64,000 bases of DNA from Actinomycetota bacterium (GCA_036397035.1 DASWJS010000021.1:788-64787); one strand, 5' to 3'. Positions 1 to 9,758 are shown, counted from the first letter of the stretch. The notes: a model not told the origin generated them from the letters alone. Made by a program: numbers and translations.

Positions 1-909
1 GCCGCGCAGGGCGAGCCCCACCTGCTCGGCGATCGTCGCGCCCGCCTTGTCCTGCGCCTCCTGGGTCGAGGCGCCGAGGTGCGGCGTGACGATCACGCTG
101 TCGAGTGCGAACAGCGGCGAGGCGGTCGTAGGCTCCTCGGTGAAGGTGTCGACCCCCGCGCCGCCGAGCGCGCCGGCCGCCAGGGCCGACGCCAAGGCCT
201 CCTCGTCCACGACTCCCCCGCGGCCGGTGTTGATCAGCCGCGCGGTCGGCTTCATCAGCGCCAGCTCGCGCGCGCCGATCATGCCGGTCGTCTCGGGCGT
301 CTTGACCACGAGCACGCACAGGAAGTCCGCCTGGGCGAGCGCGTCCCCGAGCGGGACCAGCTCGACCCCGATCTGGGAGGCGCGCTGCTTGGACACGTAC
401 GGGTCGTGCGCGATCACGCGCATCCCGAAGCTCATCGCGCGCTGCGCGACCAGCGTCGCCACGCGTCCGAGGCCGAGCAGCGCGAGCGTCTTGCCGTTCA
501 GCTCGACGCCGACGAAGCGGGTGCGGTCCCAGACGCCTTCCTTCAGCAGGGCGTTCGCGGCCGGAAGGTTGCGCGCGAGCCCGAGGATCATCGCCATGGT
601 GTGCTCGGCGTTGGAAAGGATGTTCGCCTGGGGCGCGTTGACGACGAGGATCCCGTTGCGCGTCGCGGCGTCCACGTCCACGTTGTCCACGCCCACGCCC
701 GCGCGTCCGATCACCTTCAGCGACGTGCCGCGCTCGATCAGCTCGGCGTCGGCCTTGGTCGCCGAGCGCACGATGAGCGCGTCGTAGCCCGCGATCGTCT
801 CCAGCAGGGCCGGGCGGTCCAGGTCGGTCAGGACGTCGACGTCGTGGCCCTCCGCGCGCAGCGCCTCGATGCCGGCGTCGGCGATCGGCTCGGCGACGAG
901 GACCTTCAC
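1..909 (-). CDS. serA: D-3-phosphoglycerate dehydrogenase (5' part; the gene continues beyond the window start)
   Basis: Translating the reverse strand from the GTG at 909..907 gives VKVLVAEPIADAGIEALRAEGHDVDVLTDLDRPALLETIAGYDALIVRSATK...GRAGVGVDNVDVDAATRNGILVVNAP, a typical 2-hydroxyacid dehydrogenase / SerA N-terminus. The GTG overlaps the upstream aminotransferase stop (GTGA). The + strand ORFs 47..787 and 79..966 are antisense artefacts. Confidence 0.85.
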   Translation of the reverse strand, partial: MKVLVAEPIADAGIEALRAEGHDVDVLTDLDRPALLETIAGYDALIVRSATKADAELIERGTSLKVIGRAGVGVDNVDVDAATRNGILVVNAPQANILSNAEHTMAMILGLARNLPAANALLKEGVWDRTRFVGVELNGKTLALLGLGRVATLVAQRAMSFGMRVIAHDPYVSKQRASQIGVELVPLGDALAQADFLCVLVVKTPETTGMIGARELALMKPTARLINTGRGGVVDEEALASALAAGALGGAGVDTFTEEPTTASPLFALDSVIVTPHLGASTQEAQDKAGATIAEQVGLALRG

Positions 910-2030
910 GCCTGCGCGAAGACCTCTTCGGCGGCCGCGACGGCGTCGCCGCGCTTGACCGGGTAGCCTAGCTCCTCCAGCGCCAGCTCCAGCACGGCGA
1001 GCGCCTGCAGGATCTCGCTGCGCTCGAGGTAGCCGATGTGACCGATGCGGAAGATCTTGCCTTTCAGCTTGCCCTGGCCGGGCGCGAAGATGATCCCGTA
1101 CTTGGCGCGCACGAGCTTGGTGACCGCGGACCCGTCGATGCCCTCCGGGCACGCGACGGCGGTGACGCACACGGCTCGCTCGGGATCCTCGCCGAACAGC
1201 TCCAGGCCGAGCGCCTGCACGCCGGCCTTGACGGCCTTGGACAGCACGGCGTGGCGCGCGAGCGCGTTGTCGAGCCCTTCCTCGCGCAGCAACTTGATGG
1301 CCGCGGCGAGGCCCATGTACAGGTGGACCGCCGGCGTGTAGGGCGTCTCCGGCGGGTCCTTGCGCGCCGCGTCGCGCACGGTCGCCCAGTCGAAGTAGAA
1401 GCGCGGGAGCGTCGCGCGCGCGTTGGCCGCCCACGCGGCCTCGGACACCGCGACGAAGGCGATGCCGGGCGAGCCCATGAGCGCCTTCTGCGAGCCGCCG
1501 ATCGCGACGTCGACGCCCCAGTCGTCCACCCGCAACGGCGCGCCCCCGACGCCGGAGATCGAGTCGACGACGAACAGCGCCGGGTGGTCGCGCACGACCG
1601 CGCCGATCGATTCGATGTCGTTGACGACGCCGGTCGATGTCTCCGAGTGCTGGATGAGCACGCCCTTGATGTCGGGCTCGAGCGCCGCGGCGACGTCGGC
1701 CGCCTTCGCGGTCTTGCCCCACTCGTAGTCCAGGAGCTTCACGTCGAGCCCGTAGGCTTTGCAGATCGTCTCGAAGCGCTCGCCGAAGTTGCCGACCGAC
1801 ACGACCAGCACGCGGTCCCCTGGCGAGAAGCAGTTCACGACGGCGCTCTCCATCCCGCCCGAGCCCGAAGCTGTGAAGGTCAGCACGTCGTTCTTCGTGC
1901 CGTAGATGTCGCGCAGCCCTTCGGTAACCTCGGTCAGCACGGAGCCGAATCCGGGCCCACGGTGGTAGACGATCGGGCTACCCTGGGCCAGGAGAACCTC
2001 GGGGGGGACCGGCGTGGGTCCAGGCGTCAT
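906..2030 (-). CDS. serC: Class V aminotransferase (phosphoserine / serine-pyruvate aminotransferase family)
   Basis: The 426-aa ORF has class V aminotransferase hallmarks (GPTPVPPEVL, a PLP-lysine region SQKAL, C-terminal RIGHIGY). The likely start is the internal ATG giving MTPGPTPVP (2030). The stop overlaps the serA GTG by 4 nt, which supports a serC-serA operon. Confidence 0.8.
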   Translation of the reverse strand: MTPGPTPVPPEVLLAQGSPIVYHRGPGFGSVLTEVTEGLRDIYGTKNDVLTFTASGSGGMESAVVNCFSPGDRVLVVSVGNFGERFETICKAYGLDVKLLDYEWGKTAKAADVAAALEPDIKGVLIQHSETSTGVVNDIESIGAVVRDHPALFVVDSISGVGGAPLRVDDWGVDVAIGGSQKALMGSPGIAFVAVSEAAWAANARATLPRFYFDWATVRDAARKDPPETPYTPAVHLYMGLAAAIKLLREEGLDNALARHAVLSKAVKAGVQALGLELFGEDPERAVCVTAVACPEGIDGSAVTKLVRAKYGIIFAPGQGKLKGKIFRIGHIGYLERSEILQALAVLELALEELGYPVKRGDAVAAAEEVFAQA

Positions 2031-2192
2031 CAGGATCTCGGGTTTGCGCACTGCTCGCTCCTTCGCAGCTCGCCGGCGTCCGCGCGGGCCGGCACGGGCC
2101 ATCCTACGTGACCTGAGCAGCACGTTCATCCGGGTTCTTGACGGTTCTGAGACCTGGATCGTCTGAGTTCGCCACCACGCCCGCACCAGGCG

Positions 2193-2789
2193 TCAACGAC
2201 AGCGACCACGCATGTGATCAACTTGGTACGGCTTGTCCCACACCAGCAAGCCGTCCGCGTCCCACGCCTTGGCGCGGACCTTCAGCCGGTAGCTCGCCAC
2301 CGATGTTCGCCCACACGTGTTGAGCACGGCAGCCGACTTTGGGTTCTTTGCACTGCGGGGGTCACTTGCGGAACCAGAGTTGCGGTCGGACCAGCCAGCC
2401 CCGGTGTTCTCCTGGATCTTCACCAATAGAGAAGTCTCACTGAAGCCGCCGGTGCACACGAGATAGGCCGCGCCAACGAACTGAGTGTTACTGCCGTCGG
2501 AAACGGCGCGGAACTCGCCGTCGCTCGAGCAGTTGATCAGTGAGGTCATCTTCTCCACGTATCCTGGACCTGGATCGAAGGCCGGAGGGTCTTCCGCATA
2601 AGCCGCCGGGCCGCCGGCAGTGCCGTCATCCAAACACCAGGAGGGCATCGGCACGAACACAAACGGAATACCGGTGTCTACCTCACAAACCTCGCCGAGA
2701 GGATCAGCATGAGCAGCCAGTGGGAATACGATCGCGGCCAGACCCAATCCTGCGACCAAGGCAACACACAAGAGATTCGCCTTCCGCAC
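2193..2789 (-). CDS. Secreted hypothetical protein, paralog B of a tandem pair (198 aa)
   Basis: N-terminal signal peptide (MRKANLLCVALVAGLGLAAIVFPLAAHA). It shares strongly conserved blocks with the next ORF (ADPL.E.CEVD, PxWCLDDGT, YxEDPPxFDPGP, SNTQ..AAYL.C.GGFS.T.LL.KIQENTG.GWSDR, DPRS.KNPK). No known family recognised. Confidence 0.6.
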   Translation of the reverse strand: MRKANLLCVALVAGLGLAAIVFPLAAHADPLGEVCEVDTGIPFVFVPMPSWCLDDGTAGGPAAYAEDPPAFDPGPGYVEKMTSLINCSSDGEFRAVSDGSNTQFVGAAYLVCTGGFSETSLLVKIQENTGAGWSDRNSGSASDPRSAKNPKSAAVLNTCGRTSVASYRLKVRAKAWDADGLLVWDKPYQVDHMRGRCR

Positions 2790-2854
2790 CTAACACCCTC
2801 CAGTCGGGCGAACGTTGTTCAGGGCAGTGTTCTGCGACGGATCTATGCGGGCGC

Positions 2855-3451
2855 CTACTTGCAGCGTCCGCGCCACGGACCAACCTTCCACGAATGATCC
2901 CCGACAAGGTTGCCGTTGTGGTCCCACACCTTCACTCGGAACTTCGCCCGGTAACTCGCAAGGGCAGTTCGGCCACAAGTGCTTGAGGCGACCGCGGTCT
3001 TCGGGTTCTTAGGGCTCCTCGGGTCGTCAGCAGAATCGCGATCCGACCATCCGCTGCCAGTGTTCTCTTGGATCTTCGCCAGAAGGTACGTATCGCTGAA
3101 ACCACCCGAGCATTCAAGGTAGGCTGCGGCGATCATCTGCGTGTTGCTCGAATCGCTGATCATGTGGAACTTGCCGTCCGCTCCGCAGTCGATTCTCGAC
3201 GCCATCTGCTCGACGAATTGTGGGCCTGGGTCGAACGGCGGAGGATCCTCGTTGTAAGCGAACGGTCCGTCGGGCGTGCCATCATCCAAGCACCACGGGG
3301 GCAACAGCAGAAACACGCCGGGTACTACCGGATCCACCTCACATAGATCCTCAAGCGGGTCAGCCTGAACGGAGGTCGGCGCCAGCACTCCCGCGCACAC
3401 CAACCCGAGCATGGCCGCGAAACTCAGAACCTGACTTCCTCTACGCCGCAT
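2855..3451 (-). CDS. Secreted hypothetical protein, paralog A of a tandem pair (198 aa)
   Basis: Signal peptide (MRRRGSQVLSFAAMLGLVCAGVLAPTSVQA). Same length as 2193..2789 and roughly 60% identical to it. Conserved Cys pattern. Confidence 0.6.
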   Translation of the reverse strand: MRRRGSQVLSFAAMLGLVCAGVLAPTSVQADPLEDLCEVDPVVPGVFLLLPPWCLDDGTPDGPFAYNEDPPPFDPGPQFVEQMASRIDCGADGKFHMISDSSNTQMIAAAYLECSGGFSDTYLLAKIQENTGSGWSDRDSADDPRSPKNPKTAVASSTCGRTALASYRAKFRVKVWDHNGNLVGDHSWKVGPWRGRCK

Positions 3452-3833
3452 TGCGACCCCCCGACCTTGGGCGCGCGCCTAGCGCTACATCTATTCGTGG
3501 AATGGAATCCTATGATATCAGTAATATCTCTCAGATGAGGTGCTGATCCCGAGTGCGTGTTCCTTCTAGTGAACCAGGCAGCAACAGCGCCGCGGACAGG
3601 TCGCTCGTCCTGCCCGCCAGCCTGAAAGTACCCTCCCTCGCAGGTGTCCTGACTATTGACGGGGAACATCTGCTTCACGCAGACACAGGCCTTGCGCGAG
3701 CACGGCTGGTGCACCTGGAGTTGGGCGCAAGACTACTTGCACGGAGGATCATGAACATCGGCAGGCTCTTCCGCAAAAGGCCGTGCCGGGATCTGTCCCG
3801 GGCCGTCGCCCGCGCGGGCGCGGGGAGGCGAGC
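3452..3833. promoter_or_regulatory. Divergent intergenic region with an AT-rich island (about 3485-3550)
   Basis: A 380-bp gap lies between divergently oriented genes. The local sequence catctattcgtggaatggaatcctatgatatcagtaatatctctcagatgagg is very AT-rich against a background above 70% GC. It is a likely promoter or regulator-binding region for both flanking secreted-protein genes. Confidence 0.4.
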
Positions 3834-5305
3834 GTGAGGAGGGCCGGCGCGCTCGTTCTGGGCGCCTCGCTGTGCACCGGGTTGTTCGCCGTCCCGGCGG
3901 CGGGCGCCGACTGCACGAGTTTGCCGCGCAAGCCCGACCGGCCCGAGGTCGAGGTCGCGCGCGCGAAGCTGCGCGGCGCCTCGTCCGTTCGCCTCCTGCC
4001 CGGGAAGGACAAACGCGTCCATTACAGGCTGAGGCTTCCCGCGTCGCCCACGCCGCTGGACATCTTCTTCCTGCTGGACACCACCGGAAGCATGGATGCG
4101 GCGATCTGCAGCGTGAAGCTCGCGCTCTACGACATCGCCTTCGGCCTGGAGAAGACGGGCATCGACGTGAACTTCGGCCTCGGGTGGTACCGGGACTACC
4201 CGATCGCGCCCTACGGCGACCCGGGCGACACGGCATACAAGCTCGAGCACAAGATCGGCCCGCTGGACGAGGCGATGATCGAGACGCTGCACGGGCTCGA
4301 CGCGGGAGGAGGGTTCGACGGACCCGAGTCCGCCCTCCCGGCGCTGTACCAGGCCGCGACGGGCGAGGGGCAGGACGTCGCGCCGCCCGGGTCCTCGCCG
4401 GCCGACATCCCGGACGGCGGGGAAGCCGGCTTCCGCGAGGGCGGCCTGCGGGTCATCGTGAACGTGACGGACGCCCCCTTCAACAAGGGACGGGCCTACC
4501 CCGGTCCGGCCTGGGCCGACGTGGTCGAGGCGCTCCGCGGGAACGACGTCTACCAGGTGGGCATCGCGGTGGGCAACCGCAACCAAGACCTCGAGCGGAT
4601 GGCGTTCGACACCGACGCGGTCGCGCCGAAGGGCGGGCTCGACTGCGACGGGGACGGCTCGGCCGACCTCGACAAGGGACTCCCGCTCGTCTGCTCGATG
4701 GGTGGCGGCTCGGTCAACCTGGCCCCGACGATCGTGAGCATGGTCAAGGCGATCGAGGACATCGCGTCGGTGAAGTTCCGAGCGGCCGGGGCGGCTGAGG
4801 TCGTCGCCGCCGTAAAGCCGCCTGTCGTGCCCGACCTCGACATCACTCGTCCGCACCGGGCGGCCGTCCGCGTCCGCTATCACTGCGACAAGCCGAACGG
4901 CGAGCACATGGTCGAGCTGGTCGCCAGCGTCCGCGGGATCGAGGTCGCCCGCACACGGACCACGGTCACCTGCGACGCGCCGCCGGCCGTGCTTCCGATC
5001 GTGCAGGCGGCCGGGATCGCGGCCGCGCCGGCGCCCGCGCCGCAGCCGGCCCCGCAGACCAACCCGCAGGTGCAGCCACAGCCCGGCGCGCAGCCGGCCG
5101 GCGCGCTGGCGGGCGCGCCCGCCCAGGCGCCCAACCTGGCGACGGCGTCCTCCTCGGACACCGGCGACGAGACCTTGCAGATGAGCAGAGCACGCGCCAC
5201 CCCACCGCTCGCGTGGATGGTCATCGTCCTTGCGATGTCGGCCGGAGCAGCATCCATGTTGTCAACAGCGAAGCGGCCGCAGCAGGCCACCGCACGGAGG
5301 GATCG

Positions 5306-5309
<4 letters not shown>
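3834..5309 (+). CDS. Secreted von Willebrand factor A (vWA) domain protein with a Pro/Ala/Gln-rich C-terminal region and a C-terminal hydrophobic anchor
   Basis: MIDAS-type motif DIFFLLDTTGSMD. Signal peptide after the GTG at 3834, which is preceded by the RBS GGGGAGG. C-terminal low-complexity APAPAPQPAPQTNPQVQPQPGAQP, then the hydrophobic stretch LAWMVIVLAMSAGAASML. The stop overlaps the downstream ftsH-like ATG (ATGA). Confidence 0.7.
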
Positions 5310-7462
<2,153 letters not shown>

Positions 7463-7573
7463 ATCCCCGCCGAGAATAGACTCCCGGCCATATACAAACC
7501 GCACGGGCACTGGCATACTGCCCACCCGAACTAGAGGAATCCGATACAGAACGCTCGCTCGCTCGCTCGCGCC

Positions 7574-8767
7574 TTGCCACGCACGACGTGGCTGGGTGTC
7601 GTCGCATTGGTCCTGGCACTGGCAGCCGTTGCGAGCATGCCGACGCGCGCGCGGGCGATCCAGGAGCCGCTTCTCACGTTCGTGAGCATGCCGGACTTCC
7701 TCAATGCCGACGTCGCCTCGACCACGAGCCTGCCGAGGTGGCAGCCGGGCGACCCAACCAGCACCAACAAGTGGTGGCGGGAAGCGATCGGGGCCGTGCT
7801 CGATGCCGTTCAGTCCCACGACCCGGACCTGGTGTTGGTTGCCGGCGACTTGGTTCACGGCGAGTGGCACAAGGACGAGGAGCGCGTGCGGCTGTTCGGC
7901 TCGATCCGGGGGCTCCAGCGCAAGCGGCTCGCGATCCACCGGGCGGGCGCGCTCTACTACGGCCGGTGGAAGCGGCGCTTCGCCGCCCGAGACTTGCCGG
8001 TGCACCCGACCCTGGGCGACCACGAGATCGGCGACAACCCGTGGCTCCCCGGGAAGGCGAAGACCAAGCTGGTTCGGACGTTCAAGAACACCTGGGCCCG
8101 CGCCTTCACCGATCGCGCGGAGTACGGCATGCACCCGACCGGGACGGCCTACGACCGCACCGCGTATGCGTTCACCGTTCAGAACACGCTGTTCGTCGGC
8201 GTGGACGTCTTCCGCGCCCGCAAGAACGGCGTCGAGATCACGGTGCGGGGCGGACAGTTGAGGTGGCTGCGCGACCTCCTCGAACGCGCGCGGCTGGACC
8301 CGCGGATCGCGCACGTCGTCGTCCAGGGGCACACGCCGGTCCTCGGGCCCGTGCGCGGGGACCACACCTCGGGCCTGACGATGGCCGGCGGCTCGTCGAG
8401 CGAGTTCTGGTCGACCTTGAAGACCCTCGGCGCGGACCTCTACCTGGCCGGCGAGTTCCATGCGATCACCTCGATCAACGACGGCCCGATCGAGCAGCTC
8501 GTCCACGGGGGCAACGTCGGCAAGGGCTCCTACCACTCGTTCGTGGTAGGCAAGGTCTACCCGGATCGGATCGAGCTGACCGCCTACGAGGCGCCCCTGT
8601 ACCACTACCTGCGCAAGCGCACGCTGTGGAACACGACCTCCAACGGGCCGGCTGCGATCGTGGTCGTCGGCCTCTACGAGCCCGTCGGCACCTTGACCAG
8701 GATCGAGGTCGCCGGGCACACCGAATGGCAGGACCGAACCGGCGTCTTCATGCCCTACCAGCCTTGA
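7574..8767 (+). CDS. Secreted calcineurin-like metallophosphoesterase
   Basis: Signal peptide ([22 protein letters not shown]) and metallophosphoesterase motifs ([22 protein letters not shown]). Confidence 0.7.
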
Positions 8768-9758
8768 TCCAGGGCATCATCGAGCGGAGCTTCTTGCCGA
8801 CTTCCTCGATCTGATGGCCGGCCTGCTCCGCGCGCATGCGCTTGAAGCTCGAGGCGCCGGCTTCGTTTTCGGCGATCCATTCCTTGGCGAACTGCCCTGA
8901 GGTGATCTCCTCCAGGATGCGCTTCATCTCCGCGCGCGTCTCCTCGGTGATCACGCGCGAGCCGCGCGAGTAGTCGCCGTACTCGGCGGTGTCCGAGATC
9001 GAGTAGCGCATGAACTCGAAGCCGCCCTCGTAGAGCAGGTCCACGATCAGCTTCAGCTCGTGCAGGCATTCGAAGTAGGCGATCTCGGGCTGGTAGCCCG
9101 CGTTCACGAGCGTCTCGAACCCGGCTTGGACCAGCGCGCTCGTCCCGCCGCAGAGCACGGCCTGCTCGCCGAACAAGTCGGTCTCGGTCTCCTCCTGGAA
9201 GGTGGTCTCGATCAGGCCCGCGCGCGTCGCGCCGATGCCCTTCGCGTAGGCAAGGCCGAGCGCGTGCGCGTTGCCGGTCGCGTCGCGGTGGATCGCGATC
9301 AGCGCCGGCGTGCCGATCTTCTCCAGGTAGGTGCGGCGCACGAGGTGCCCCGGTCCCTTCGGCGCAACCATGCACACGTCCACGCCCGGCGGTGGGTCGA
9401 TCTGGCCGAAGTGGATGTTGAAGCCGTGCGCGAAGAACAGCGCGTCGCCGTCGCGCAGGTTCGGCGCGATCGACTCGTCGTAGGCGCGGCGCTGCGCGGT
9501 GTCGGGGATGAGCACCATGACGAGGTTCGCCTCGTCGACTGCTTGCGCCGCCGGCACGGCGCGCACGCCGTCGTGCTCGGCTCGCGCGAACGAGGCCGAC
9601 CCCTCGGCGAGCCCGACGCGCACGTCGGCGCCGGAGTCGCGCAGGTTGAGCGCGTGCGCGTGACCCTGCGAGCCGTAGCCGAGGACCGCGATCCTGCGGT
9701 CGTCCAGCACGCTCAGGTCGGCGTCGTCGTCGTAGTAGATCGTGGCTGCCATTCTCAT
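8748..9758 (-). CDS. ilvC: Ketol-acid reductoisomerase
   Basis: Strong full-length match to IlvC ([34 protein letters not shown]). The start is ATG 9758 (ATGA overlap with the ilvN stop) or ATG 9752. Confidence 0.95.

Follow-up and report, generated by a model that had tools for sequence, protein, structure and literature searches.

The DNA considered here is a 64,000-nucleotide stretch from an Actinomycetota bacterium (GCA_036397035.1, DASWJS010000021.1:788-64787; "the window", with positions counted from its first letter). At 2193-3451 it carries two adjacent genes, here called paralog A and paralog B, whose products look like secreted proteins of identical length. The two genes and their upstream region form an islet of foreign composition, which was probably acquired as a unit by horizontal transfer. 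The elements of the gene pair are the following:

2193-2789, minus strand: paralog A (HEX9775362.1, VGB83_07265), 198 amino acids (aa), GTG start, predicted mature protein 170 aa
2706-2789: predicted signal peptide of paralog A (aa 1-28)
2790-2854, minus strand: spacer of 65 bp between B and A, containing the Shine-Dalgarno sequence of A
2796-2801: Shine-Dalgarno sequence GGAGGG of paralog A, 6 nt ahead of the GTG
2855-3451, minus strand: paralog B (VGB83_07270), 198 aa, ATG start at 3451, predicted mature protein 168 aa
3362-3451: predicted signal peptide of paralog B (aa 1-30)

A and B are real coding genes. Their products are 57% identical across 197 aa (BLASTP, E = 8e-83), while the nucleotide sequences are 61% identical, with identities of 67%, 77% and 41% at the first, second and third codon position, respectively. 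An interpretation of both as spurious open reading frames (ORFs), i.e. non-coding or pseudogenised foreign DNA that stays open by chance, could point to the empty homologue searches and the unconfident fold predictions reported below, as well as to the start of B, which differs between annotations (160, 185 or 198 aa). It is nevertheless scarcely credible and effectively refuted, because two ORFs of equal length with such a codon-position pattern arise only under protein-level selection, and because both ORFs have a signal peptide and a ribosome-binding site (in B a G-run precedes the ATG). As to the start of B, the public model (HEX9775363.1) uses a GTG at 3337, which gives 160 aa and lacks the signal peptide together with the ADPL..CEVD block, and further gene callers begin at Met14 (185 aa). 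Conservation with A reaches upstream of the annotated start and takes in the signal peptide as well as ADPL..CEVD, so that the 198-aa model is preferable.

The locus had been picked out in a sequence-only reading as a tandem pair of same-strand genes, both 198 aa long, that encode signal-peptide proteins with shared blocks and a common cysteine pattern, and on all of these points our analysis agrees with it. The blocks ADPL..CEVD, WCLDDGT, EDPP.FDPGP, SNTQ, AAYL.C.GGFS, KIQENTG.GWSDR and DPRS.KNPK are found in both proteins, and six cysteines are invariant in the mature part. The same reading had proposed diversifying selection, which is not supported by our data. Nei-Gojobori estimates for the mature regions gave dN = 0.28 and a saturated pS of 0.73 (dS ~2.8 or more), hence a dN/dS of ~0.1 or less, and among windows of 30 codons the maximum, near the C-terminus, was 0.3-0.5, so that none reaches 1. 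The duplication is old and both copies are under purifying selection. A scenario in which an exported factor diversified in an arms race after tandem duplication would be in keeping with the 43% of residues that differ between the paralogs, with the raised dN/dS of the C-terminal 30-45 codons and with the accessory, horizontally acquired look of the locus. Given the low overall ratio at saturated synonymous sites, the long invariant blocks and the retention of all six cysteines, however, we regard this scenario as distinctly improbable; site-specific positive selection is beyond the reach of a dN/dS comparison of two sequences only.

The composition of the pair sets it apart from its surroundings. 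The relevant intervals and gene sets are:

~2110-3760 (approximate bounds): low-GC islet of ~1.65 kb comprising both genes and the upstream region, 62% GC
2193-2789: paralog A, 61% GC, GC content at third codon positions (GC3) 0.69
2855-3451: paralog B, 61% GC, GC3 0.71
3452-3782: upstream non-coding region, 59% GC
3479-3548: GC minimum of the window, 38% GC per 60 bp (60-mers starting at 3479-3489), 30-100 bp upstream of B
Flanking aminotransferase, vWA and FtsH genes: 70-72% GC, GC3 0.91-0.94
46 plausible genes of the window: GC3 0.90 +/- 0.07 (mean +/- SD)

The window averages 71.2% GC. The interval 2052-3833 has 61.7%, which is ~4 SD below windows of the same size elsewhere (71.5 +/- 2.3%, minimum 64.4%), and no ORF of 150 aa or more has a lower GC3 than A and B. 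In composition, both genes and the DNA upstream of them are thus foreign. A strikingly AT-rich island of 60 bp had been described earlier in the upstream region (3452-3833). It is indeed the spot of lowest GC content, and 60-mers as low as 38% GC make up only 0.01% of the window; because both genes are themselves GC-poor, however, it is no isolated feature and has to be seen as the trough of the 1.65-kb islet. A 96-aa ORF on the minus strand (3424-3714, GC3 0.65) spans the AT-rich island and overlaps the start of B. It has no family match, is called by no public gene caller and is probably not a gene.

The islet lies in the divergent intergenic region between two native genes, the second of which is followed by a protease gene:

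906-2051, minus strand: class-V aminotransferase, 381 aa, native flank, located upstream of serA; GC3 0.91 (over the longer ORF 906-2186)
3834-5309, plus strand: vWA-like protein, 491 aa, divergent, native flank; GC3 0.91 (over the longer ORF 3783-5309)
5306-7462, plus strand: FtsH-family protease, overlapping the vWA gene by 4 bp

For comparison, related loci were retrieved via the aminotransferase, which is 73-85% identical in eight of them (L004-L008, L012, L037 and L081); L081 was retrieved via the vWA neighbour. The pair is absent from all eight, and a tblastn search with the pair against loci L004-L010, L012 and L037 gave no match. L081 is an empty site: its gene order is serA, the aminotransferase (84% identical), a gap of 146 bp, a vWA homologue (48% identical) and a second vWA paralog, with no pair in between. 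DNA homology between the window and L081 ends at 2065 and restarts at 4023 within the vWA gene, and a short vWA-proximal stretch (~3763-3781) also looks common to both. Together with the conserved -10 box of the aminotransferase (2101-2106, see below), this seemingly shared stretch confines the insert to ~2110-3760. Upstream of the aminotransferase the other relatives show the following arrangements:

L004 and L005: ilvC abutting
L006: gene for a 502-aa secreted protein
L007: small cupredoxin lipoprotein gene between ilvC and the aminotransferase
L012: gap of similar size (~0.6 kb)
L037: 4.4 kb of unrelated genes, including one for an extracytoplasmic function (ECF) sigma factor

In this lineage, gene content thus varies around ilvC, the aminotransferase and serA (L004-L007, L012, L037 and L081 compared with 906-9758 of the window). 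In the window, metallophosphoesterase, FtsH and vWA genes, all of native GC3, lie between ilvC and the aminotransferase along with the foreign pair.

No homologue of the pair was found in any collection. Neither paralog had a match in Pfam, PHROGs or PADLOC at E <= 10 or in NCBIfam at E <= 0.01, and sequence and profile searches of the PDB were empty at E <= 10. A word-indexed search of 5.8 billion clusters (90% identity) returned B alone for B as the query and, with a profile of the mature region at E <= 10, A and B alone. An exhaustive hmmsearch of 1.84 billion representatives at 50% identity found one protein, which represents the cluster containing the pair itself. GTDB species genomes, JGI metagenomes and IMG/VR, scanned in translation, yielded no homologue, and phage and plasmid collections gave no match at the protein or the DNA level. 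The proposed survey of phyletic distribution thus finds homologues nowhere beyond the pair in billions of clusters. The earlier view of an unrecognised family, which a common domain of unknown function or widespread annotated homologues would have overturned, is upheld, and the claim that the pair is a family without detectable relative stands in the strongest form that these searches allow. The locus itself is also present, with 100% identical DNA, in three other assemblies, two from ENA and one from Logan, and the proteins of the pair are likewise recorded in JGI/IMG, on contigs of up to 501 kb; ERZ27256807, ERZ27256989 and SRR8537879 are the source samples.

The N-termini of both proteins, judged by eye and by hydropathy, are those of canonical Sec / signal peptidase I substrates, with a positively charged n-region, a hydrophobic core and small residues at -3 and -1. 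In A, MRK and the core are followed by AHA\DP, in B, MRRR and the core are followed by VQA\DP (the backslash marks the predicted cut), so that cleavage by signal peptidase I would probably occur after AHA and VQA, respectively. The top hydropathy over 15 aa is 2.75 in A and 2.33 in B, starting from residues 7-8, and no second strongly hydrophobic segment follows. The signal peptides do not match the lipobox L-[AS]-[GA]-C, as their cysteines follow L-L (Cys8 of A) and L-V (Cys19 of B) at positions that do not align. Neither do they match the twin-arginine (Tat) motif S/T-R-R-x-F-L-K, because B reads RRRGSQVL and A reads RKANLL, the F-L-K context is absent and the RR is not conserved. The predicted mature proteins consist of two contrasting parts. 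The first 45 residues are acidic (isoelectric point, pI, 4.05), with 8-11 prolines, no Lys or Arg and one pair of cysteines. The other part, of 123-125 residues, is basic (pI 8.8-9.0), with four cysteines and a long Lys/Arg/Pro-rich loop (DPRSPKNPK...C) that adjoins one of them. The six conserved cysteines most likely form three disulfides.

Structure prediction added little. AlphaFold2 models from the two-sequence alignment had a predicted local distance difference test (pLDDT) score of 35.7 for the mature protein and 38.3 for the core, which makes both unusable, and a Foldseek search of the core model against the PDB found nothing at E <= 0.001 (best E = 0.87 at a probability of 0.15, which is meaningless). 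No fold can be assigned on this basis. Both low-confidence models weakly suggest one helix (around FVEQMASRI) followed by several beta strands.

In our reading, to which we give a probability of roughly 0.6, the locus is an operon of two genes that came in by horizontal transfer and encodes extracellular proteins, probably with disulfide bonds. In this scenario ~1.65 kb of foreign DNA would have entered the intergenic region from which the class-V aminotransferase gene and the vWA-protein gene diverge. The inserted segment would be a two-gene operon, B then A, transcribed from a promoter in the GC trough. Each product would be exported by Sec and cleaved by signal peptidase I to release a protein of ~18 kDa, made up of 45 N-terminal aa that are acidic and rich in proline and of a basic core of ~123 aa (pI ~9). 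The duplication would have taken place long ago, ahead of the transfer, and the pair would have arrived recently from a donor of ~60% GC. This order of events is suggested by the saturation of synonymous sites between the paralogs, set against a GC3 that still lies ~20 points below the host; a duplication within this genome is unlikely, because the time elapsed since then should have pulled GC3 towards 0.9.

The alternative is that A and B belong to the native genome and are specific to this lineage, having arisen de novo or diverged until no kinship is recognisable; their low GC3 would then reflect weak expression or regulatory selection, and the relatives would have lost them. That neither a donor nor a homologue turned up in any collection searched fits such an origin, as do the missing mobility genes and insertion scars and the fact that the neighbourhood of ilvC, aminotransferase and vWA genes is rearranged in every relative. 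It fails to explain, however, why an old pair, as the saturated dS demands, should still have a GC3 of ~0.70 in both genes when old residents should reach ~0.9, and why the upstream non-coding DNA is just as low. The pair is missing from all eight related loci, and genes born de novo do not typically encode a structured protein with a signal peptide and six cysteines. We therefore consider a native origin unlikely.

Several observations weigh against our reading of the locus all the same. Deletion in the relatives is a formal possibility, and the insertion would have left no traces of mobility: no mobility genes were found in the islet, no tRNA in the window and no convincing flanking repeats. 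The donor lineage is missing from all collections searched. The four assemblies bearing the locus show no difference over 5-12.8 kb (100% identity), so that pN/pS is not computable. A scan for consensus sigma-70 promoters found none, and no immunity or transporter gene adjoins the pair, the islet consisting of the two paralogs only. Finally, since neither the unconfident structure predictions nor the fold search gave anything usable, the functional proposal made below is drawn from composition, charge and context only.

A GC-rich direct repeat of 18 nt (16/18 identical), with copies 1730 bp apart at 2072-2089 and 3802-3819, brackets the islet. As the border of an insert it would enclose the conserved -10 box of the aminotransferase, and it is probably a chance occurrence in a GC-rich genome.

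Among known arrangements the locus resembles the small, horizontally acquired islets of lineage-specific orphan (ORFan) secreted-protein genes, which are comparable to the "morons" of phages. Like these, it is a short GC-poor segment with an upstream region of its own, set between native genes, carrying accessory exported cargo and missing where relatives have the corresponding site. In contrast to these, no sign of a phage, plasmid or transposon was found around it, integrase, tRNA and direct repeats are lacking, and its cargo is without any homologue.

B and A are probably co-transcribed, because the spacer between them is short and shows neither a terminator nor unusual structure: a terminator scan, which included the spacer, found none, and RNA folding of the 3' flank, the spacer (z = -0.27) and the 5' untranslated region was no better than for shuffled sequences. 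An Rfam scan of 1900-4000 gave sub-threshold noise only, and apart from GC palindromes near the vWA start the upstream region contains no short inverted or direct repeats. A promoter of the operon in the GC trough (~3480-3550) is plausible. Two hexamers of the same sequence are of interest here:

3507-3512, minus strand: candidate -10 hexamer TAGGAT (TANNNT type) within the GC trough; its end lies 55 nt ahead of the ATG of B
2101-2106, minus strand: -10 box TAGGAT of the aminotransferase, ending 49 nt upstream of its start; TAGGAT/TAGAAT in 6/6 aligned genomes

These are the only copies of TAGGAT in the 64 kb, both on the minus strand, against 3.55 expected. As this number is not above chance, only its position argues for a role of 3507-3512 as a -10 element.

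The Lsr2-like silencer CgpS is reported to recognise foreign DNA by a distinct GC drop close to where transcription starts (PMC7002338), and Lsr2 reportedly binds AT-rich DNA in Streptomyces (PMC6584129). In view of both, xenogeneic silencing of the islet is a reasonable hypothesis by analogy. Like the targets of these proteins, the locus combines a trough of 38% GC just upstream of B with an islet of 62% GC in a genome of 71% GC; unlike them, the trough is short (~70 bp) and only moderately AT-rich. A tblastn search with the Lsr2 of M. tuberculosis found nothing in the window, a result that is uninformative for the whole genome.

As to function, we tentatively suggest an accessory pair that acts outside the cell, possibly as an inhibitor, a binding protein or a cationic antagonist that is kept inert by the acidic N-terminal segment. 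A classical bacteriocin locus is disfavoured, because no immunity or transporter gene is adjacent. More speculatively, the pair might found a family of extracellular effectors of its own, perhaps even with a novel fold, in which an acidic, proline-rich pro-segment restrains a cationic, disulfide-locked core; the two proteins would form a two-component antagonist or inhibitor from an unsampled donor lineage or mobile element. This picture is a doubtful one.

Sec-exported inhibitors with a core of ~110-170 aa, several disulfides, an alpha+beta or beta structure and extracellular action are represented in actinomycetes by SSI (PF00720), BLIP and tendamistat. The pair shares with them Sec export, core size and disulfides, whereas it has no sequence or profile similarity to them, its acidic proline-rich N-terminal segment and six-cysteine pattern are without counterpart, and a reactive-site loop is not identifiable. 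The proteins could conceivably hide a familiar activity behind strong divergence, for example that of an SSI-like protease inhibitor or of a secreted ribonuclease of the barnase/RNase Sa type. Size, secretion, disulfides and the predicted order of a helix followed by an antiparallel sheet would be compatible with this, and so would the basic core and the Lys/Arg/Pro-rich loop beside a cysteine. Such distant relationships would nonetheless have to escape both Pfam at E <= 10 and the profile search of the PDB, which renders this explanation very improbable. Both candidates were rejected: hhalign gave a probability of 0.3% for the SSI family and 0.1% for barnase/RNase Sa/T1 (PF00545), with SSI and RNase Sa, respectively, as the sequences compared, and neither family had a Pfam match. 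Ribonucleases of the RNase Sa/barnase type, moreover, use a catalytic His (catalytic set Glu/Arg/His), and no His is conserved between A and B.

Uncultured lineages from soil commonly contain orphan genes, and foreign ORFan genes for secreted proteins in a metagenome-assembled genome from soil are an ordinary phenomenon. The present case is cleaner than most, as it combines two paralogs that validate each other, an empty site in a relative and the composition of a recent arrival, with no relative in collections of ~15 billion predicted proteins. This makes the pair a test object for the origin of such genes and for the silencing of low-GC troughs on foreign DNA in deep-branching Actinomycetota. 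Should the proteins turn out to inhibit enzymes or to be antimicrobial, a new scaffold would be gained.

Some minor observations concern the neighbouring genes and the wider region. The vWA-like protein is a surface-anchored one with a signal peptide, a DxTxS motif resembling a metal ion-dependent adhesion site (MIDAS), a Pro/Ala/Gln-rich linker and a C-terminal membrane anchor; its assignment to VWA relies on weak matches under the Pfam cut-off. Only five homologues (35-48% identity) were found in the collection of 5.8 billion clusters, and in L081 the gene is duplicated in tandem. A functional link between the pair and the vWA gene was considered and dismissed, as nothing like the pair adjoins the vWA homologues in L081-L083; next to the L082 homologue lie two unknown genes whose products are unrelated and look cytoplasmic. 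Elsewhere in the window, an interval on the minus strand (50391-52188, GC3 0.70-0.74) with a 246-aa ORF without family match and a 369-aa ORF with a MarR-type helix-turn-helix (HTH) domain may be another foreign islet. Past the left end of the window, just downstream of serA, the 500-kb contig (L001, 13890-17600) has a group of genes that may amount to a defence or toxin-antitoxin cluster: one for 208 aa that is unannotated, one for 358 aa with a faint TIR_2 match, one resembling MqsA/HTH antitoxin genes and two small ones of unknown kind.

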